32,000 nt of DNA from Nostoc punctiforme PCC 73102 (GTDB taxonomy: Bacteria; Cyanobacteriota; Cyanobacteriia; Cyanobacteriales; Nostocaceae): the NCBI RefSeq assembly GCF_000020025.1, contig NC_010628.1:4560001-4592000 (forward strand), read 5' to 3'. Under the pieces are notes generated by a model. It saw only the letters and a list, made by a program, of their open reading frames with translations, made no database searches and was not told where the DNA came from. Below, piece after piece: positions 9,839-21,528 of this stretch (positions are counted from its first letter, which is position 1; each line of letters starts with the position of its first letter). Made by a program: the position numbers and the translations under genes.

Positions 9839-10687
9839 TATTAATAATGTTGATATAGAATGATTATTTGAAAATTATTTGTATGCAATGATTTGATTAT
9901 AAATGCTATTGGGAAGATTTAATAGTTAGAGCTTTGCGAGTTAAATTATTTAATTTTACGAGAATCTGAGTAGTTAGCAAATGGCGATTTTACACAGTAA
10001 TTGGTTACTAAAAAGTCAAAAAGGTTGTTTATTTATTTGGGGAGAAACTTGGCGATCGCCACGAGTTAATTTCGAGTCTAATGGATCTGGAGATATCCCA
10101 CTAAATCCATTGGCAATGACATCACTAGAGTTGAGCGAGTGGTTGGTTTCCCAGAAGATGGCCATTACCAACTTTATCCAGCAACCCCAAATTGCCATCG
10201 CTACTACTGGGCGAACACGTAAAGCAGCCACTGCCACTGAGATAAACTTACCAACGCATTCACAAATAATTGCCTTACCAACTTATATTCCCGAAGAGAG
10301 TGCAGAAGGAACATCTGCAATTTTCCCTGTGCATTCTGCCAGCTTGAGACTAGAAACAGACTCTCCGCAATATTTGCAACCGTGGCTAGTTGAGGGTTTT
10401 TGTCTTAACCCCAGCGAAGCAGTAAAATTTCTCGCTGCTGTTCCCCTGAATGCTGCTAAAGGGGAAGATGCTTTTTTAGGAGGAGATTTACGTTTTTGGT
10501 CGCAAGTTTCCCGATGGAGTTTAGATTTAATCTCGCGGTGTAAGTTTTTACCAAGAATTGAACGGCAATCAGACGGTGCATTTGCTGCTAAATGGCAAGT
10601 ACTTCTAGACAGTGCTGTAGATGGAACTCGCCTAGAAAAGTTTTCTGCGGATATGCCGTTGGTTTGCCGCACTTATCAGGAGGGAGT

Positions 10688-10760
10688 GGGGACTGGGGAC
10701 TGGGGACTGAGGACTGGGGAGGAGTTTTCCCAATCCCTAATCCCTAATTCCCAATCCCTA
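10688..10760. repeat. STRR-type heptamer array pair (G-rich arm GGGGACT x3-4, C-rich arm [A/T]AATCCC x4) inside the SNF2 CDS
   Basis: GGGGACTGGGGACTGGGGACTGAGGACTGGGGA is followed by the spacer GGAGTTTT and then CCCAATCCCTAATCCCTAATTCCCAATCCCTA. It is read through in frame as GTGDWGLRTGEEFSQSLIPNSQSL. The reverse complement of GGGGACT is a rotation of the CCCCAGT heptamer. Confidence 0.8.
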
Positions 10761-12818
10761 CTTTATGTAAACTTCCCTACTGAACCTCAAGAATTGTTGC
10801 TGGGATTTCTCAACAGTACGATAGATGCCCAAGTGCGAGGGATGGTGGGTTCTCAGCCTCCAATGGAAGCTAAGGCAATGGCATCTTTACCATCTGGGGT
10901 GCGGCAGTGGTTGCAAGGCTTGACTAGTACATCTGGTACAGTTAACGCAGATGCCATTGAAGTGGAACGACTGGAAGCGGCACTGAAGGCTTGGATGATG
11001 CCGCTACAATACCAATTAACTCTTAAAACTCTATTTCGTACCTGTTTTCAACTGCGTTCTCCAGAAGCTGGCGAAACAGATTGGACATTGGCGTATTTTC
11101 TGCAAGCGGCTGACGATCCTGATTTTTTGGTGGATGCGGCAACTATTTGGAACAATCCAGTTGAACGTTTGGTTTATGAAAATCGAACAATTGAGCAACC
11201 ACAGGAAACATTTTTGCGAGGTTTAGGGGTAGCTTCCCGATTATATCCAGCGATCGCACCCAGTTTTGAAACCGAATATCCCCAATCTTCTCGGATCACA
11301 CCCATGCAAGCTTATGAGTTTATCAAGGCTGTAGCTTGGAGGTTGGAAGACAGTGGTTTGGGGGTAATTTTGCCTCCTAGTTTAGCGAACCGCGAAGGAT
11401 GGGCAAATCGTTTGGGTTTGAAAATTACTGCTGAAACCCCAAAGAAAAAGCAGGGACGTTTAGGGTTGCAAAGTCTGCTGAATTTCCAATGGCAATTGGC
11501 AATTGGCGGACAGACTATTTCCAAAGCTGAGTTTGATAAACTTGTGGCTTTAAATAGTCCACTAGTGGAAATTAACGGTGAGTGGGTAGAATTGCGGCCC
11601 CAAGATATCAAGACAGCCCAAACATTTTTTACCACTCGCAAAGACCAAATGGCGCTTTCCTTGGAAGATGCCTTGCGTTTCAGTACAGGAGATACCCAGG
11701 TAATTGAAAAATTACCAGTGGTCAGCTTTGAGGCATCTGGGGCATTGCAAGAGTTGATTGGGGCGCTAAATAATAATCAAGCGATCGCACCTTTACCGAC
11801 ACCAGTAGGCTTTAAAGGACAGTTGCGACCTTATCAAGAACGTGGTGCTGCTTGGCTGTCCTTCTTGGAACGTTGGGGCTTAGGCGCGTGTCTCGCCGAC
11901 GATATGGGACTCGGTAAAACTATTCAGTTTATTGCTTTTTTGCTACATCTTAAAGAACAGGATGCACTAGAAAATTCAACACTGCTAGTTTGTCCAACTT
12001 CTGTTTTAGGCAACTGGGAAAGGGAAGTCAATAAATTTGCACCAAGCCTGAAAATTTTGCAATATCACGGTGACAAACGTCCAAAAGGGAAAGCGTTTTT
12101 AGAAGCAGTGAAAAATCACGATTTAATCGTTACCAGCTACTCACTGCTTCATCGGGATATCAAGTCATTGCAAAGTGTTCCTTGGCAGATAATTGTTTTA
12201 GACGAAGCCCAGAATGTGAAAAATCCAGAGGCGAAGCAGTCAAAAGCTGTGCGGCAATTAGAAGCTACATTTCGCATTGCATTAACGGGGACACCAGTAG
12301 AAAATAGACTGCAAGAACTATGGTCTATTTTGGATTTTCTCAATCCAGGGTATTTAGGTAATAAGCAATTTTTCCAGCGGCGGTTTGCCATGCCAATTGA
12401 AAAGTATGGTGATACGGCTTCTTTGGGTCAATTACGTTCATTAGTTCAGCCATTTATACTGCGGCGATTAAAAAGCGATCGCGAAATTATTCAAGACTTG
12501 CCAGATAAGCAAGAGATGACCGTATTTTGCGGTTTAACTGCCGACCAAGCTGCACTTTATCAACAAGTTGTAGAACAATCTTTAGTAGAGATAGAATCTG
12601 CTGAAGGATTGCAACGTCGGGGGATGATTTTGGCTTTGCTAATCAAACTGAAGCAAATCTGCAATCATCCAGCCCAATATTTGAAACAGGCGACATTAGA
12701 GCAACATAATTCAGCCAAACTTCTGCGGCTAGAAGAAATGTTAGAAGAAGTTTTAGCAGAAAGTGACCGGGCTTTAATCTTTACACAATTTGCAGAGTGG
12801 GGTAAGTTACTTAAACCC

Positions 12819-14000
12819 AAAAGTGTTGAATGTTAAGAAAAATCCGATAAAAACAGCCCAAAATATGTTAAATTTTGGGCGGAAGATTAAAGTATATCTA
12901 TTTAATAGTGATTATAAATTCATTTCCCAAGATTGTCAAAGATATCTTGAGAGGACTGCCAAAAAACGATTATCCAGTATTGAACAGTCGTCTGTTCTTT
13001 GAGTGCTGGTTATCTTATGCTATGGATAACAGCTTAACAAGTATGCGAGATTTATTTAACAGATTAAACAACACAGGATTTCCGGTAGATATTTCTACTT
13101 TCTCTAAAGCAAACTTACATCGAAGTCAAAAACCTTTTCAAGAAATTTACCAAAAATTAAATGAATTAGTACAGAAGAAAGTTCAAAAAAAGTTACATGA
13201 TAAATATGCAATTTGTCCAATAGATTCAACAATTATTACTCTCACAAGTAAATTGTTATGGGTACTAGGACACCATCAAGTAAAACTTTTCAGTTCTCTA
13301 AATTTAGCTACTGGAAGTCCATCAGATAACTTCATAAACTTTGGACATGACCATGACTATAAATTTGGTTGTAAAATGATGTCTAGTCTACCAAATAATG
13401 CTGTTGGTGTAATGGATAGAGGTTTTGCTGGATTAAAATTTATCCAAGAATTAGTCCAAGAAAACAAATACTTTGTTTTGCGGGTAAAAAACAATTGGAA
13501 GTTAGAATTTGAGGAGCAAACTGGATTAATTAAAGTTGGTGCATCTAATGATGCTCAAGCCTATAGAGTGATTAATTTTTGTGATTTAGAAACGAAAACT
13601 GAGTTTCGATTAGTAACCAATTTACCAACATTAGGAGAGGCTGCCGTTAGTGATTATGAAATCAGGGATATTTATCGATTGCGTTGGGGAGTTGAATTGT
13701 TGTGGAAGTTTTTGAAAATGCACTTAAAACTTGACAAGTTAATTACTAAAAATGTTAATGGTATCACCATACAAATTTACGTTACTTTAATAGCTTATCT
13801 AATTTTACAGATATTATCTGTACCACAACAATGGGGACATACGCTATTAGATAAATTCCGCTATTTACAATCTTGTATGTGTCAGAAAATAAGTTATGTT
13901 CATTGGTTTGAAGAGATGATGTCATGTTGACTATTTTAGGCTTTTTAGAGTTAGTGTAACTAGATATGTAAACTTTTGTATCAGCATTCAACATTTCTGA
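12819..14000 (+). mobile_element. IS4-family insertion sequence (~1.18 kb)
   Basis: Flanked by the direct repeat (A)CTTAAACCC at 12809/12810..12818 and 14000/14001..14009. It has imperfect terminal inverted repeats sharing TGTTGAATG (12824..12832; reverse complement at 13985..13993). It contains a single transposase ORF and no HIP1 site. Confidence 0.85.
12875..13930 (+). CDS. IS4-family DDE transposase
   Basis: 351-aa ORF. It has PIDSTIITL (first D), GVMDRGFAG (second D) and the YREK-type signature IYRLRWGVELLWKFLK. The track start is a TTG; a GTG at 12908 (MIINSFPK...) is an alternative. Confidence 0.85.
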   Translation: MGGRLKYIYLIVIINSFPKIVKDILRGLPKNDYPVLNSRLFFECWLSYAMDNSLTSMRDLFNRLNNTGFPVDISTFSKANLHRSQKPFQEIYQKLNELVQKKVQKKLHDKYAICPIDSTIITLTSKLLWVLGHHQVKLFSSLNLATGSPSDNFINFGHDHDYKFGCKMMSSLPNNAVGVMDRGFAGLKFIQELVQENKYFVLRVKNNWKLEFEEQTGLIKVGASNDAQAYRVINFCDLETKTEFRLVTNLPTLGEAAVSDYEIRDIYRLRWGVELLWKFLKMHLKLDKLITKNVNGITIQIYVTLIAYLILQILSVPQQWGHTLLDKFRYLQSCMCQKISYVHWFEEMMSC

Positions 14001-14555
14001 CTTAAACCCTATTTAGAAAAACAGCTTGGGCGAGAAATATTCTTTTTATATGGCAGTACCAGTAAAAAACAAAGGGAGGAAATGATCGATCGTTTCCAAC
14101 ACGACCCCCAAGGCCCCCCGATTATGATTCTTTCTCTGAAAGCAGGTGGAGTAGGACTGAATTTAACACGAGCAAATCATGTATTCCACTTTGATAGATG
14201 GTGGAATCCAGCCGTGGAAAATCAAGCCACAGATAGAGTATTTCGGATTGGTCAAACCCGGAATGTGCAAGTACATAAATTTGTTTGTACAGGCACTTTA
14301 GAAGAAAAAATTCATGACATGATTGAAAGTAAGAAACAATTAGCTGAACAAGTTGTAGGTGCTGGTGAAGAATGGTTGACTGAACTGGATACAGACCAAC
14401 TTCGCAACTTACTAATACTTGATCGCAGTGCAGTAATTGACGATGATGCAGAATAAGTTCTTAGTAAGGACTTTCGTCTTTGATTTTAGCGCTAAAGCGC
14501 TCACTACTAACCCGTCAAAATTAGCACAGCGCATTACTAAGCTTTTGAATTAATT

Positions 14556-15505: not shown

Positions 15506-15709
15506 TTCAATATTTACCCACTTCCGCACTGCCTAACGAATTGTCCGTCTGCCATTTGCCCGATTTTTATCAATGAGTTTTGGCAGATATCGAATTGCTA
15601 AAGTAGGAAATACTAAACTGTTCTCTAACTCGACATATTCCCCATTTTGTAGGTGGTAAATCTTTAGTTCACTGGAGTCATAACACCAGAGTTCTGGTAC
15701 TCCCAGCGC
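15506..15709 (-). pseudogene. Uma2-family (DUF820) endonuclease, C-terminal remnant
   Basis: The minus strand from 15709 reads ALGVPELWCYDSSELKIYHLQNGEYVELENSLVFPTLAIRYLPKLIDKNRANGRRTIR*AVRKWV. The GVPE.W.YD...L.IY.LQNGEY...S..FP pattern is typical of the Uma2 C-terminus. There is an internal TAG at 15535..15533, and homology stops abruptly at 15709 where the repeat begins. Confidence 0.7.
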
Positions 15710-15845
15710 GAATTTCTCACAAACAATAAAAAATCAATTCACATCACTTGATACAAGACATTTTTTGATACATCATCAATTGAAATTTATGAGACTAAAC
15801 AAAGTAAGTATAAATTAGCAATTATCAGGCTTCAAGCAATCAAAA
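15707..15845 (+). repeat. ~140-bp repeat, copy 1 (left boundary of the island)
   Basis: AATTTCTCACAAACAATAAAAAATC (15711..15735) is identical to 19650..19674. The remainder aligns with 19675..19750 plus 21489..21528 at roughly 70-75% identity by eye, with small indels. Confidence 0.7.
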
Positions 15846-16001: not shown

Positions 16002-16278
16002 TTACAACGTGTCCCAATTTACACGTATCCCGGCTGTACCCCATACCCGCTTAACTTCTACATAATCATTGCCAGTCACGACATTATATATGTCTGGATT
16101 TGTCAAACGCTGCCACTCAGCAAAACCTATTCTGCTGGTGGAAATGTTTTAATAGCACGGTCATTAAATTACCATGCGTGACAATAATCGTAGTCTTAGT
16201 ATCGTACAACAAAATTTTATTTACTACTGCAACTGCCCGTTGCATTGCGGCACGACTTGATTCACCACCTAACTCTCG
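16002..16278 (-). pseudogene. Histidine phosphatase (phosphoglycerate mutase-like) family remnant: C-terminal part only, with a frameshift
   Basis: The minus strand reads RELGGESSRAAMQRAVAVVNKILLYDTKTTIIVTHGNLMTVLLKHFHQQN, matching the GGES...R...V.HG pattern. After a frameshift near 16120..16128 it continues GFAEWQRLTNPDIYNVVTGNDYVEVKRVWG...*. The N-terminal catalytic RHG part is absent. Confidence 0.6.
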
Positions 16279-16625
16279 AAAAAAAATCTGCAAGTATGAT
16301 TATGATTTTATTTTGAAGCTGAGAGGAAAGGAAAGACATTTACCTCTTGGGATATATGTTTACTGTACAAAAAACGCGAAACTGATATATAAAGATGTAG
16401 CGGAAGTGAGCTTTGAATCTTTTTTCTTTCGCCCTCTTTCCTATCTTCTCTCCAGTGAATTGTTAAGTTCGCCAACAGTATCCATAAGCTTTTTTCAATG
16501 TGAAAGCTATACCCAGATAGCATTATACTCTTTTTTTACCTTCGATTTTGTTTAAGTCCCGATATCGCTTTTAGTTTAAATTCCAACCGAAAACTTCTCA
16601 AAACGCTAAAACTCACAAAGAAAAA

Positions 16626-19091
16626 ATGAAACTTTTAACGATTGACACCAAAAACAATTGTTACGTTATTGACGCTAATGCAATGAACCACCTGCAACAA
16701 GATGTTGCTAGCACTTTTACTTTGGAGAAAGGGACTTTTGATATAAGAATTACCAGTGGTCGCTATAGTTATGCTCAGAGCGAAACTGAAGGCGAACCTT
16801 TGGTTGTACTTTGGATATATGGGGCTGATAGCAGTACATTTATCAACAAAAACACAGGCACTGAAACAGGTGCAACTTGGACAACTTTAAACGGATACAA
16901 CAAGAAATTACAGTTGGAAGTCAAAGGAAAAACTGTTATTTGTGCTTTATTTTTTGATGTTAACAATAGTGAGAACAAAGGATCGATCAATCTTTTAGTT
17001 AGCAGCAATAAACCACATTTTAATCCTCAAACTATAACAGTTGACAGTAAGCAAAACTGTTATGTTCTTGATGAAAAAGTTATATCCAATCTGAAGCAAC
17101 CAAGTTCCAATTTTGTTGAATTGGAACCAGGCAATTACAAGATAAAGATTCGTGAAAGCAACGCTACTTATTGGTCTTCTGAGCAAAGATTTCAATTAGA
17201 GCCTTGGGCTTTGCTATGGATTAAAGATGGGAAATTTGTTTCTAACCTTACTGGTCTTGAAGTTAAAGAAACTTGGTGTTCGCTCAATGGATTACAAGAC
17301 GAATTCATTTTAGAAGTTAAAGAAAAAACCACTATTTTAGGATTTTTCTTTGATACCTACAAAGAAGATAACAAAGGACAAGTTGTTCTAGAAATTAACA
17401 CAGTGAGTCAGGCTGTAGTAACTACAGGCTATGACAATCAGCCGAAACCGCCAGTAACAGGAGTGCCAGACGGTAATGTGAATGAAGAAGGCAATGTCAC
17501 TGTTGTAAGCACTGGAGGAACAGGTTCTGCTATCAGTAGTGGAGGAGGAAGCTTCAGTGGAGGAAGTAGCTTCAGCGGAGAGAATGCTTTCAGCTTCAGT
17601 TTCGATCAAGATCAGATGGAGCGAATGTGGCAAGAGATGTCAGCCAGGCTCGAAAGCTCAGTAAGCGTAACGGCTCAAAAAGACGAAAATAAACAAGCCT
17701 ACTGGGAAGGTCTTGAAAAATCGATACTCAAAGGCTATCAAAGCCAAGCTAAGCAACTTGCCATGCAGGTAGCACGGCTTGAGTTCATGATGAAGACTCT
17801 GATACAACAAACGGAGGTAAATTTTAACCAAAGCTTCCAAGGTTGGTCTAGTTACTTTAATAAAAATCTCAATGACTTGTTTATTACGAGAATTCCCAGA
17901 ATAGTTAACGATCAGGTCCATCTGGCAATTACTGAACAAACCCAAGAAGTTAAAAACTTAGTAATTCAACAGATACAAACAGAACTCAATGAGCGTGTTG
18001 AGTCTGTAGTTAATCTGAAACTCACTAATCAAGCTCAAGAGATTAAGGCTTCAGTCGTTCAGCAAATGCAAACAGAACTGGAGCAACGGATAGAAAATGT
18101 CGTTAATGTCAAAATTGCTAATCAATCTCAACAGATCAGCAATCAAGTCATTAACCAGATATCAAATGACATTGACCAGCGCATTGAGAATGTGGTTAAT
18201 GTCAAAATTGCTAATCAATCTCAACAGATCAGCAATCAAGTAACTCAGCAGATACAATTTGACATCGATCAGCGTATTGATAATGTCGTCACCCTGAAAA
18301 TTTCTGATCACACCCAGGATGTCAATAATCTTGTGATTCAGCAAATGCAAACCTACATTGAGGAACGGATTGACAATGCAGTTAACATCAAAATTGCTAA
18401 TCAAGCCCAAGACATTACCACTCAAGTGGTTCAGCAGATCCAAATCAACATTGATAAGCGTATTGATGCGGTAGTTAACCTTAAAATCGCTAATCAAACC
18501 CAAAATATTAAGAGCCTGGTAGTCCAACAGATTGAAGCTGATTTCGATCAACGCATCAAGTCTGTCGTTAACCAATCTACCAATAACAATGTTCAGTTAG
18601 TCGTTAATAATGTCGCCAACGAGCTTGATAATCGCATCAATGTCAACTTAGACAATAAAATTGTCAACTTCCGCAATGAAGTATCTATGCTCGTTAACAA
18701 TGAGATTAACCAAAACTTCACGGAGTCTCTCAAAACGACGATTTTATCAGATATCAAAAAACAGCAGTTTTACATTGATATGCAGTCAATCAAAGCTGAG
18801 GTGGAGAACTTTTACGCCCGTTTAGGACAGTTTGAGAGTCAGTTATATTTTCGTATTGAACAGGGTGATACCCAACTTTATAATTGGACTCTCGAACAAC
18901 TTATTGCCCTTCAAGGTTGCTTAACCGATCGCCAAGCTCTGGTTGAGATTTTTGAGGTCTTCGCCTGTAACCTTAAAGACCAACTAAATGGTGCTGAATG
19001 TGTTCATCCTAATCGGTTTACCCCTTGGGTAAGAAGAACTTCGCAAGCACAATTTCAGCCTATGGAGCCTCAGCAACTGCCAAACGCTTAA
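16626..19091 (+). CDS. 821-aa modular repeat protein of unrecognised family
   Basis: Uninterrupted 2466-nt ORF with an ATG start. Residues 1-135 and 136-262 are paralogous domains. Residues 295-326 form a Gly/Ser-rich linker. Residues 436-652 are seven 31-aa repeats. The C-terminal ~170 aa look helical. I see no signal peptide, TM helix, lipobox or NTPase motif. Confidence 0.8.
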   Translation: MKLLTIDTKNNCYVIDANAMNHLQQDVASTFTLEKGTFDIRITSGRYSYAQSETEGEPLVVLWIYGADSSTFINKNTGTETGATWTTLNGYNKKLQLEVKGKTVICALFFDVNNSENKGSINLLVSSNKPHFNPQTITVDSKQNCYVLDEKVISNLKQPSSNFVELEPGNYKIKIRESNATYWSSEQRFQLEPWALLWIKDGKFVSNLTGLEVKETWCSLNGLQDEFILEVKEKTTILGFFFDTYKEDNKGQVVLEINTVSQAVVTTGYDNQPKPPVTGVPDGNVNEEGNVTVVSTGGTGSAISSGGGSFSGGSSFSGENAFSFSFDQDQMERMWQEMSARLESSVSVTAQKDENKQAYWEGLEKSILKGYQSQAKQLAMQVARLEFMMKTLIQQTEVNFNQSFQGWSSYFNKNLNDLFITRIPRIVNDQVHLAITEQTQEVKNLVIQQIQTELNERVESVVNLKLTNQAQEIKASVVQQMQTELEQRIENVVNVKIANQSQQISNQVINQISNDIDQRIENVVNVKIANQSQQISNQVTQQIQFDIDQRIDNVVTLKISDHTQDVNNLVIQQMQTYIEERIDNAVNIKIANQAQDITTQVVQQIQINIDKRIDAVVNLKIANQTQNIKSLVVQQIEADFDQRIKSVVNQSTNNNVQLVVNNVANELDNRINVNLDNKIVNFRNEVSMLVNNEINQNFTESLKTTILSDIKKQQFYIDMQSIKAEVENFYARLGQFESQLYFRIEQGDTQLYNWTLEQLIALQGCLTDRQALVEIFEVFACNLKDQLNGAECVHPNRFTPWVRRTSQAQFQPMEPQQLPNA
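17931..18581 (+). repeat. Seven tandem 93-bp (31-codon) coding repeats
   Basis: Units start at 17931, 18024, 18117, 18210, 18303, 18396 and 18489. The peptide consensus is [AT]NQ.Q.I...V.QQIQ..I[DE]QRI.NVVN.KI. Units 3 and 4 share a perfect 47-bp stretch (18102..18148 = 18195..18241). Confidence 0.9.
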
Positions 19092-19645: not shown

Positions 19646-19750
19646 CGCAAATTTCTCACAAACAATAAAAAATCGATTTATATGGACTGATATGAGATAT
19701 TTTTTCGATACATCACCCATTCAAATTGACGTAGATAAATAAACTAAGTA
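19646..19750 (+). repeat. ~140-bp repeat, copy 2, left part (interrupted by the IS5-type element)
   Basis: Aligns with 15707..15810 of copy 1, and the first 25 nt after CGC[A/G]A are identical. Confidence 0.7.
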
Positions 19751-21488
19751 GGGCTTGCTGAAAAAGTCATAAAAAAGCAATTCTTTTGGGTTGACTAGTT
19801 ATTTAAGCAAGGTCAAAGATAAGTTTTTGTTGCCTATAGCTAGCAAAATCATAATGCTTGGTTATGTCAATCGCTAAAAAATGTCTATTTTTCCAAAATA
19901 GACATAAAAAGGCACAAAAAAACCGTGACAGGTGAGTAGAAAGATTCATGACTAAAAAAGTAATAGCAATCACAGTTAGAGTTGTATGAGGAAGTTTCGC
20001 CATTACTCTACTCAAGCTAAATCTTCTTTTAGCTTGTCCAAATTTGCCTTCAATACAATTACGAATCCTCTCATCTTGTAAAGCTTGCTTCTTTTTTTCT
20101 TTACTCACATTTTTTGGCGGTCTTCCTAAAGGAACTCCACTGATTCTAATACCTCTTTCTTTGCACCAAGATCGGTTTTCTCGCTTTGCGATAAATTTTA
20201 TCAACATGAACAGATTCTGGATAATATCCAGTGTAGTTTTTAAAGGATTCTATTTGTGTTTTTAAGTCTCCTGATTCATTAAAGTTATCCCATCTAATAT
20301 GGTCTAAAAATGCATATCCATCAAAGTAACTAGCAGATAGTTTAGCGCCAAATTCCACGGCTTTACCCGCTTTTCCTCGGACAATTGGACGGATATGTGG
20401 TTGGCTTAAACTTACAATACGGTCATCAATGCTCTGCTTTTTATTTTCATACAGCCATAGTTGTTGACGATATACTTCTGCGACTACCAGCAACATCTTA
20501 TATTGTCTATTAGTTAAACTTTTTAGAGATGCTCCTGCTACAATTAGCTGGTCAATATAGGATAAGTTTCTTTTAATATATTGGAGTTGTTTTTTAATCG
20601 CTTTTCTCCTCTCTTTTTGAGATACACGACGTTTTTTAGCTACTTCTAAGTAGTCTTTCCTAGCTATTTCTCGGTAAGTCCTTGGTTTTTTCTCTAATAT
20701 TCCCTTTATCTGTTCATAAAGCAAGTCAATTATTCTTTCTGTCTGTTTTCTCGCTTGATTTAATAGGTTTAAATCTGTTGGATAGCTGATATCACTAGGC
20801 ACACAAGTCGCATCTAATATTAATTTCCCTCGATTTCTTAGCGTATTACCTTGTTCTGCTGCTTTTTCTGTCGATAGCGCAGCGTTAGCGAGTTCGCGAG
20901 CGTCTTCTGTTTTTTTTTCGGTGTCAATAGAAGATGCTAACTCTAGCATCTTCTTAACCATTTCTTGATTCACATTATTGACTAGTTCTGCACTGATTCT
21001 TTCTCGAAAATGTACTAACATGGATGCGTCAAATGGAGTTTTGTTACTATAAGATGACATCCCTATAAAGTACTGTAAATAAGATTCTCCTTGATTTGCT
21101 CTACTGTTTCCCTGTCGCTTATACCTAGTTTCTCTTTAATTATTAATGCACCTAACGCCATCCGAAATGACTTTGCTGGTGCCCCTATCTCTGCGGAGAA
21201 TCCGGCAGAATATTCCGACTCAAATTCTGTCCAGGGTATTAAATCGGCCATAATTACCCAACGATTATCTGATGATAACTTTCCCTCAAATGGAAGCTCA
21301 AAACTTTCTGCTGGAATTGGAGTTGATTCTTCTTTTCAGTACATAGTTAATAATGATACACTATGCTGCGACGAACCACTGTGATGCAAGGATTTTGGGC
21401 TATTTTACCTTCTTGTCTTGCACCTGAATATACTTCTTTGGTCTGAGAATCTAGAGACTGCAACCTTTTCTTTTTTTTCAGCAAGCCC
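19751..21488 (-). mobile_element. IS5-family insertion sequence (~1.74 kb), decayed
   Basis: The terminal inverted repeats are GGGCTTGCTGAAAAA (19751..19765) and TTTTTCAGCAAGCCC (21474..21488). TAAGTA is duplicated at both junctions (19745..19750 and 21489..21494). If the IRs instead include the flanking TA, the duplication is only AG. The uninterrupted copy 1 has a single TAAGTA at the equivalent site. Confidence 0.8.
19803..21251 (-). pseudogene. IS5-family transposase (DUF772 N-terminal domain plus DDE domain) broken into three ORFs by two frameshifts
   Basis: The ORFs are 21251..21063, 21060..20146 and 20207..19803. Break 1 is near 21080: the reading ...EQIKEN-LIYSTL* should continue as YLQYFIGMSSYSNKTPFDASMLVHFRERI in another frame, which looks like a 1-nt loss. 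Break 2 is near 20185: DKIYR then switches frame to RENRSWCKERGIRISGVPLGRP. The tail RNCIEGKFGQAKRRFSL is typical of IS5. Confidence 0.8.
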
Positions 21489-21528
21489 TAAGTATAAATT
21501 AGTATTTCTCAAGCTAAAACAATTACTC
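21489..21528 (+). repeat. ~140-bp repeat, copy 2, right part (right boundary of the island)
   Basis: TAAGTATAAATTAGTATTTCTCAAGCTAAAACAATT aligns with 15805..15845 of copy 1 (TAAGTATAAATTAGCAATTATCAGGCTTCAAGCAATCAAAATTT). Confidence 0.6.

Follow-up and report, generated by a model that had tools for sequence, protein, structure and literature searches.

A stretch of 32,000 nucleotides from Nostoc punctiforme PCC 73102 (contig NC_010628.1, positions 4,560,001 to 4,592,000; the whole stretch is referred to as the window) carries on its + strand a complete, uninterrupted open reading frame (ORF) of 821 amino acids (aa) at 16626..19091, with an ATG start and a stop codon at 19089-19091. This ORF had been described as clean in an earlier reading of the letters alone (hereafter the sequence-only reading), and its boundaries proved exact. 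To judge from sequence comparisons, its product belongs to a family that is nearly specific to cyanobacteria, uncharacterised and without Pfam, NCBIfam or PDB representation. The gene reads as one that has moved recently between cyanobacterial orders, and its product can tentatively be viewed as a tether or scaffold in the cytoplasm. It is preceded by a leader of ~45 nt with a ribosome-binding site (16582..16625, + strand), which is conserved with the ORF across cyanobacterial orders; within Nostocales only, conservation extends further upstream to ~16490. The GC content of the gene (0.384) is close to that of the window (0.404), and an atypical base composition was rejected on this basis. Just 5' of the gene, a TTG-start ORF of 151 aa at 16100-16555 has no family match and is common only to the window and the corresponding locus (L023) of Nostoc sp. 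LEGE 12447; it is probably not a gene.

The coding region (all segments on the + strand) begins with two predicted beta-sandwich domains, or heads, at aa 1-134 (16626..17027) and aa 135-262 (17028..17411). Their sequences indicate that they are paralogous, as had been proposed: aa 1-135 and 136-269 are 37% identical in BLASTP (E=2e-27) and align with an hhalign probability of 99.9. A predicted disordered linker rich in Gly, Ser and Pro follows at aa 271-327 (17436..17606; G 21%, S 19%), and its length and sequence differ among homologues; the Gly/Ser stretch noted earlier at aa 295-326 is present (STGGTGSAISSGGGSFSGGSSFSGENAFSFSF). Next come a conserved N-terminal helical segment of the family core (aa 328-436, 17607..17933), seven 31-aa repeats (aa 437-653, 17934..18584; consensus NQtQeIknlVIQQmQtdIdqRIdnVVNlKIa), a degenerate N-rich continuation of the repeats (aa 654-714, 18585..18767) and a conserved C-terminal domain (CTD) at aa 715-800 (18768..19025). 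The helical segment contains the motifs F.F(D/E)..QME.MWQ.M, W..LEK.ILKGYQ.QAK.LAMQVARLEFM and W..YF, has invariant columns at aa 345-411, and matches the family motif W..LE..LLKGY...K.LA.QVAR.EFM ... W..(Y/H)F. The CTD is marked by QGDTQLYNWTLEQLxALQGCLTDRQ...C(V)xP, a match to the family motif GD.QLY.WTL.QL.AL.GCL.DRQ ... C(V).P. Across 40 aligned homologues, neither C765 and C792 nor the residues of the motif around them vary; motif conservation in this alignment is strong over the full length of the protein. Neither an N-terminal signal peptide or hydrophobic segment, nor a transmembrane segment (maximum 19-residue Kyte-Doolittle mean 0.83), lipobox, Walker A motif, or RTX or other recognised secretion motif was found in the protein, and no catalytic motif was seen, in keeping with the sequence-only reading.

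Searched with either the query alone or a family profile of 40 sequences, Pfam, NCBIfam and the PDB sequences returned nothing above threshold, which bears out the claim that the protein matches no named domain. Similarly, PADLOC, PHROGs (matches at E≥0.029 only) and Foldseek against PDB and BFVD placed no part of it, and an Rfam scan of the gene flanks found nothing. What appeared below threshold was noise (DUF826, SPP1_Dit, Sey1_3HB, arcadin-2, colicin E1 and MvaT). The 40-sequence profile matched only designed Pizza propellers among the PDB sequences, through a propeller region of longer family members that is absent from the query protein. AlphaFold2 (AF2), run on the 40-sequence alignment, predicted the two beta-sandwiches at pLDDT ~90 (~90-97 in domain 1), with domain 2 packed against domain 1, the linker (aa 273-328) at pLDDT 22-39, and an almost wholly helical region over aa 328-790 at pLDDT <50. 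When aa 1-269 were modelled alone, pLDDT was 92.7 and pTM 0.90; given this pTM, the two sandwiches are predicted to pack as one rigid unit. In the AlphaFold and Foldseek check that had been suggested for the protein, the heads are thus confidently predicted and retrieve only weak, generic jelly-roll, cupin or CUB-like matches (TM-score ≤0.33). A cupin/bicupin, a CUB or a phage Dit galectin-like fold reached neither a TM-score of ~0.5 nor an above-gathering Pfam score. A PA14 identity (PF07691), which was considered because of PA14 genes near remote homologues, was also rejected (hhalign probability ≤1.9%, no Pfam match at E≤1).

The homologues comprise more than 280 proteins, and 77 genomic loci were found in one-per-species genomes. 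All their named sources are filamentous or baeocystous cyanobacteria, including Nostoc, Anabaena, Scytonema, Stigonema, Calothrix, Rivularia, Microcoleus, Oscillatoria, Kamptonema, Planktothrix, Allocoleopsis, Trichocoleus, Pleurocapsa, Myxosarcina, Xenococcus, Hyella and others, from the orders Nostocales, Oscillatoriales, Coleofasciculales and Pleurocapsales. Database names are limited to 'hypothetical', 'VWFA domain-containing' and 'YncE family', consistent with the earlier statement that the family is uncharacterised; the latter two are given to long-form members and describe N-terminal modules that the window protein lacks, leaving the core, the repeats and the CTD without a name. No paper describing the family was found in the literature that could be searched, and the topics of coiled-coil-rich proteins (CCRPs), DUF4332/Vps62/PA14 and 31-residue repeats gave nothing relevant. 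Besides the query, no listed homologue is attributed to N. punctiforme PCC 73102 or to PCC 7120, and this probably explains the lack of study.

Two architectures predominate. The short form, of 805-845 aa, is conserved in many genera, while long forms of 1070-1940 aa carry vWA-like and beta-propeller-like modules ahead of a conserved M(K/S)LLTIDTKNNCY start. The vWA-like module was recognised from a DxSxS motif by eye and from source names, with no confirming Pfam match, and the propeller-like module from weak DUF4394, DUF6923 and SGL matches. No signal peptide was seen in the long forms whose N-termini were inspected. The 821-aa short form lacks the vWA-like and propeller-like N-terminus of the long form, which reads as ancestral; a remnant of that N-terminus 5' of the window ORF was sought by tblastn, and none was found. 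In Nostocales, many long forms (e.g. L057:12320-16422) are followed 3' by a conserved gene trio that, by sequence reading and with no profile confirmation, resembles DUF2235-type hydrolase, animal-haem-peroxidase/cyclooxygenase-like and catalase-related proteins, and that would then be an oxylipin-type cluster. The trio is absent at the window locus and probably reflects lineage synteny only. A further protein of 2222 aa from Nostocales cyanobacterium HT-58-2 (L076:2817-9485) has an N-terminus 61% identical to residues 1-266 of the query and a long TPR array in place of the 31-aa-repeat core, suggesting that the beta-sandwich head recombines with other repeat scaffolds.

Beyond these forms, a search of 1.84 billion representative proteins with the CTD (aa 690-821) gave 41 clusters at E≤1e-3, of which ~39 are genuine, counted as 50%-identity clusters; two matches, P0129 and P0153, were discarded as tandem-assembly artefacts. 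The distant members are short all-helical proteins with both the N-terminal helical segment and the CTD (hhalign probability 99.4-99.9), and their hosts, where context is available, are not cyanobacteria. Their appendages are an uncharacterised C-terminal extension, a DUF4332 domain or ~8 repeats resembling winged helix-turn-helix (wHTH) domains. One non-cyanobacterial locus is a tight four-gene operon (L083:6351-12408, also L084) of a core+DUF4332 paralogue, a core, a PA14 and a Vps62 gene. Another remote homologue adjoins a TcA-like ABC toxin gene in assembly GCA_000170895.1, and a further one adjoins DUF697 and MACPF/hemopexin genes; the loci noted for these other contexts are L086 and L087. 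These PA14/Vps62, TcA-like and MACPF contexts may point to a toxin- or envelope-related system.

The seven repeats of the core, described in the sequence-only reading, were confirmed: they run in register from aa 437 to 653, followed by the degenerate N-rich part, with a 93-nt tandem period in the DNA (18025-18503) that matches the 31-aa unit. A repeat HMM built from the query's seven repeats and run over 120 homologues recovered 553 ungapped copies, far beyond chance, and the copy number was seven in 103 of the 120. Within the unit, R21 is invariant, Q13 and V26 are conserved at ≥97%, and positions 6, 10, 11, 14, 18, 22, 25, 26, 28 and 30 are hydrophobic. When closer relatives are compared, a given repeat finds its best match in the one at the same ordinal position. 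The repeats are thus individually orthologous, so that the seven-unit array appears old and stable rather than rapidly expanding, and selection seems to act on the length of the rod.

A Fourier analysis of hydropathy over aa 437-653 gave peaks at 3.87 (31/8; power 367) and 2.07 (31/15), the alternating VVNxKIA segment being the source of the latter. At 3.46, the heptad-like harmonic had a power of 22, ~16x weaker than the 3.87 peak. A turn of an alpha-helix takes ~3.6 residues, and 3.87 exceeds the periodicities known for continuous coiled coils. Since the dominant periodicity lies well above ~3.6 residues per turn, the sequence argues that the repeat region is not a continuous canonical coiled coil; a canonical heptad structure (~3.5 periodicity) was likewise rejected, in agreement with what had been suspected from the spacing of hydrophobic residues. 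The AF2 helices break at the alternating VVNxKIA(N/D)Q segments.

These properties bear on whether the protein is a self-assembling cytoskeletal filament, coiled-coil-rich and intermediate-filament-like, that shapes the cell or trichome. Filament-forming coiled-coil-rich proteins had come first among the likenesses named in the sequence-only reading. Cyanobacterial CCRPs of diverse sequence are known to polymerise (PMC7002697), and both the ~460-residue predicted helical region and the confinement of the family to filamentous and baeocystous cyanobacteria would suit such a role. However, the periodicity is 3.87 and not 3.5, the gene lies at non-syntenic sites, the recent transfer and patchy distribution set out below would be unexpected for a core cytoskeletal element, and PCC 7120 and PCC 73102 contribute no listed member besides the query. 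A filament of this kind is therefore doubtful.

The cellular location of the protein can be approached through membrane-anchored paralogues. At 12 loci (L015 (paralogue at 11190-12896), L042, L043, L044, L045, L046, L055, L059, L063, L064, L065 and L074), one or two paralogues with a transmembrane-like segment and the same CTD lie directly 3' of the soluble gene and share its strand. In the paralogues inspected, a signal-peptide-like N-terminus leads into a low-complexity region rich in Ser, Asn, Gly and Pro, with long repeats and a periplasmic placement, and then into a transmembrane helix, the sequence RRRRQQQ, a helical region and the CTD. The 31-aa repeats can be recognised in the helical region of the Cylindrospermum paralogue, and at one locus the tandem beta-sandwich module itself ends in a transmembrane anchor. 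By the positive-inside rule, the shared modules fall on the cytoplasmic side in every arrangement, which argues that heads, rod and CTD are cytoplasmic and near the membrane. Paralogue topology and the lack of signal peptides thus suggest that these parts work in the cytoplasm close to the membrane, with the rod and CTD as probable association elements common to the soluble and anchored forms.

The same topology weighs against the fibre- or adhesin-like character that the sequence-only reading had entertained, and which is now disfavoured. In that case the protein would be a secreted or surface fibre or adhesin, exported independently of a signal peptide (e.g. by a type I system), with lectin-like heads and disulfide-forming Cys residues. 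Its head-linker-rod build, the conserved Cys residues, the vWA-like and propeller-like modules of the long forms, the PA14 and Vps62 neighbours of remote homologues and the faint structural resemblances to the beta-sandwiches of lectins, CUB domains and phage distal tail proteins would all be in keeping with this. Nevertheless, the transmembrane paralogues put rod and CTD on the positively charged, cytoplasmic side, and the tail-anchored variant puts the heads there too. Further, the family N-termini inspected carry no signal peptide, the query adds no lipobox, transmembrane segment, RTX or other recognised secretion motif, and the short form has no adjacent transporter in the genomes examined. 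Export to the surface is accordingly improbable.

Comparison of short-form genes points to an unusual history. The window copy is 82-93% identical in nucleotide sequence to those of Anabaena, Atlanticothrix, Allocoleopsis, Trichocoleus, Kamptonema, Planktothrix FACHB-1355 and Phormidiaceae genomes, with synonymous divergence (dS) of 0.15-0.54 and a ratio of nonsynonymous to synonymous divergence (dN/dS) of 0.18-0.37. For the inter-order comparisons with Allocoleopsis and Trichocoleus, dS is 0.23-0.26. As a control, long forms gave a dS of 0.26 between two Nostoc strains and of 0.64-1.09 between Nostoc and Tolypothrix, Calothrix, Aetokthonos and strain HT-58-2, all within Nostocales; the inter-order values of 0.23-0.26 are thus far too low for vertical descent. 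Homology starts ~45 bp before the ATG (~130 bp within Nostocales) and ends 15-80 bp past the stop codon, and each genome examined has its own, unrelated housekeeping genes alongside, such as sbtA/glnB-like and rbcLXS genes in Kamptonema. No conserved partner gene or neighbourhood was found for the short form in these genomes. Because homology is confined to the gene borders while the neighbours differ, the pattern reads as recent single-gene horizontal transfer between cyanobacterial orders under purifying selection, and the dN/dS values carry no sign of diversifying selection. Such movement under purifying selection implies a portable benefit.

On the transferred unit itself no convincing terminal inverted repeats were seen, only the 5' leader and, in Oscillatoriales copies, a terminator-like 3' hairpin. 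A phage or prophage structural gene was rejected, as no relative was found in IMG/VR or INPHARED and the neighbours are housekeeping genes. A plasmid vector was likewise rejected, as the sole plasmid match is a fragmented copy. This copy, of ~41% identity, lies at 35163-36825 on the 58.7-kb MOBF mobilisable plasmid pNSMS103 of Nostoc sp. MS1 (L082), and indicates that the family can reside on plasmids.

The mobile elements visible in the window appear to have had no part in this. The sequence-only reading had described the gene as the only functional-looking one in an island bounded by mobile elements, a view that was not supported: the gene does look horizontally acquired, but as a bare single gene and not as IS cargo. 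The window and L023 are 96% identical in nucleotide sequence across the gene and its flanks, and both strains have the gene flanked by an SNF2/SWIM pair on one side and psbDC on the other. The SWIM gene next to it appears to be intact. Two strain-specific insertion sequences (IS) are present in the window. One (12819..13999, + strand, with a DDE_Tnp_1 ORF at 12875-13930) splits the SNF2 helicase gene, and the other lies at 19751..21488 (- strand, DDE_Tnp_1_2 ORFs 19803-20207 and 20146-21060). Both are missing from the syntenic L023 locus, and so their bounding of an 'island' is coincidental. An IS-bounded island or composite-transposon cargo was rejected because L023 has the gene without either IS and other hosts share only the ORF with ~100 bp on either side.

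Other details of the locus can be added. The SNF2-family helicase gene (9981-12836 and 14082-14456) is split by ~1.2 kb of IS and is uninterrupted in L023, and the two L023 matches around this IS overlap by ~10 bp, resembling a target-site duplication. The second IS has the ends GGGCTTGC/GCAAGCCC and is flanked by TAAGTA. A direct repeat of ~125 nt brackets a 3.9-kb segment with the gene, in the window as in L023; its upstream copy is at 15707..15831 (+ strand), and its downstream copy, 81% identical, at 19646..19750 and 21489-21515 (+ strand), interrupted by the second IS and uninterrupted in L023. An att-like scar is one possible origin of this repeat, a local duplication another. An extra 3.6 kb in L023 (2322-5929; ORFs of 284 and 738 aa) lies between the SNF2 and SWIM genes and is missing at ~14489-14543 of the window; it is a second strain-specific indel at the locus.

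With these elements nearby, and with some homologous loci split into two ORFs (L012, L013, L017, L037 and L072), the gene might be regarded as an ORF that is decaying or has no function and travels simply as a passenger of mobile DNA. Degradation in close relatives, which the sequence-only reading had named as a possible refutation, was not borne out: the window copy and 12 further short-form genes, drawn from different orders, all keep an open frame, with dN/dS of 0.13-0.37 against the window copy. In addition, the motifs are strongly conserved over the full length, and the IS are absent in the syntenic relative. The selection signal effectively refutes this explanation, which is highly improbable.

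A more serious contender is an accessory gene of biological conflict (anti-phage, anti-grazer or inter-bacterial defence, or toxin delivery), in which the heads would detect a target, foreign or in the envelope, and a response would be assembled or triggered by the rod and CTD. It would explain the lone horizontal spread, and it agrees with the recent inter-order transfer, the different insertion site in each genome, the patchy distribution and the degraded copy on a mobilisable Nostoc plasmid. The exchange of heads on a constant core (vWA with propeller, TPR in L076, wHTH-like repeats, DUF4332) and the remote homologues in operons with PA14 and Vps62 or near TcA-like or MACPF/hemopexin genes could be explained similarly. 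On the other hand, the query, two long forms (the L057 protein and P0060) and one transmembrane paralogue all lacked a PADLOC-DB 2.0 match at E≤0.1, and no enzymatic or pore-forming effector domain is present. The short form has no conserved partner adjoining it, its dN/dS lacks the sign of diversifying selection, and it was not found in phage or viral collections. A role in conflict is therefore unlikely on balance, although it would account for the spread of the gene.

The explanation that we tentatively prefer is that the gene product is a soluble cytoplasmic member of a family defined by an all-helical core, in which the N-terminal helical segment, the run of 31-residue repeats and the CTD with its two invariant Cys residues would form one unit, joined through the disordered Gly/Ser linker to the two tightly packed beta-sandwich heads. 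The repeat region would be a long, homo-oligomeric rod of non-heptad helices, broken at VVNxKIA once per 31-residue unit and held at a length of seven repeats; as one continuous helix, seven repeats would measure ~30 nm. The CTD and rod would mediate self-association or association with membrane-anchored paralogues, the heads would bind a ligand, and the whole protein could act on the cytoplasmic side of a membrane as a tether or scaffold of fixed length. Judged on sequence evidence, such a cytoplasmic oligomeric tether or scaffold near the membrane is possible but well short of assured.

Several points weigh against it. The confidence of AF2 is below 50 for aa 328-821, and thus the geometry and oligomeric state of the modelled rod are guesses. 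No membrane-anchored paralogue lies within the 32-kb window, and the proposed transmembrane partner may be absent from this genome. The invariant Cys pair of the CTD, together with conserved head Cys residues, would also fit an extracytoplasmic disulfide-bonded protein, and modules of the vWA, propeller and beta-sandwich kinds are characteristic of adhesins outside the cell. Further, the toxin-like neighbours of remote homologues (TcA-like, MACPF, PA14 and Vps62) hint at a role in conflict or secretion, and horizontal spread with patchy occurrence is unusual for a structural scaffold. A bolder version of the tether reading is a long shot. It would make the family a new type of rod, a seven-unit helical assembly with 31-residue periodicity (3.875) and beta-like breaks, through which sensor heads in the cytoplasm (beta-sandwich, vWA-like and propeller-like) would be joined to transmembrane paralogues with long periplasmic low-complexity arms. 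In this form it would be an envelope tether specific to multicellular cyanobacteria, with the short form as a mobile, self-sufficient plug-in head.

The family is a blind spot in cyanobacterial cell biology, with hundreds of members and no Pfam, NCBIfam or PDB entry. It offers a confidently predicted tandem beta-sandwich without a close structural relative and a seven-fold, non-heptad 31-residue repeat that may represent a new rod geometry, together with the recent inter-order movement of a single gene that looks purely structural. The recurrent pairing of soluble and membrane-anchored paralogues provides a concrete interaction hypothesis. Even if the function proves mundane, a domain family has been newly defined, along with an instance of gene transfer between orders.

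Among known systems, crescentin, FilP/Scy and the cyanobacterial CCRPs Fm7001, All4981 and HmpF (PMC7002697) resemble the query protein in having a long predicted helical region with non-helical ends. They also lack an enzymatic domain, and the CCRPs are found in morphologically complex cyanobacteria. However, no sequence similarity between them and the query was detected, and its periodicity of 3.87 is not that of a heptad. The query differs, further, in its folded tandem beta-sandwich heads and Cys-bearing CTD, and its gene is horizontally mobile and without conserved synteny.

A different kind of likeness is found in lattice-binding repeat proteins. GvpC carries 33-aa repeats on gas vesicles, and tau/MAP2 carry 31-32-aa repeats on microtubules. 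The query shares with them a small, fixed number of ~31-33-residue repeats that are individually conserved; by analogy, the length and number of its repeats may have been fitted to a partner that is periodic or of fixed length. In contrast to these proteins, it has no Pfam match to such families and no gas-vesicle genes nearby, and its partner lattice is hypothetical.

For the breaks in the rod, a structural lead comes from alpha/beta coiled coils with 'beta-layers', reportedly described by Hartmann, Lupas and co-workers in 2016, in which nonad and MATKDD-type insertions are said to occur. As in the query, the hydrophobic spacing of these proteins does not fit a continuous coiled coil and there are regular strand-like breaks, to which the VVNxKIA segments, where the AF2 helices break, would correspond. 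The sequence motif and the 31-residue spacing of the query differ from theirs, and the likeness is a structural lead only. Overall, the head-linker-rod build of the protein is familiar, while its core, repeat geometry and CTD are new.

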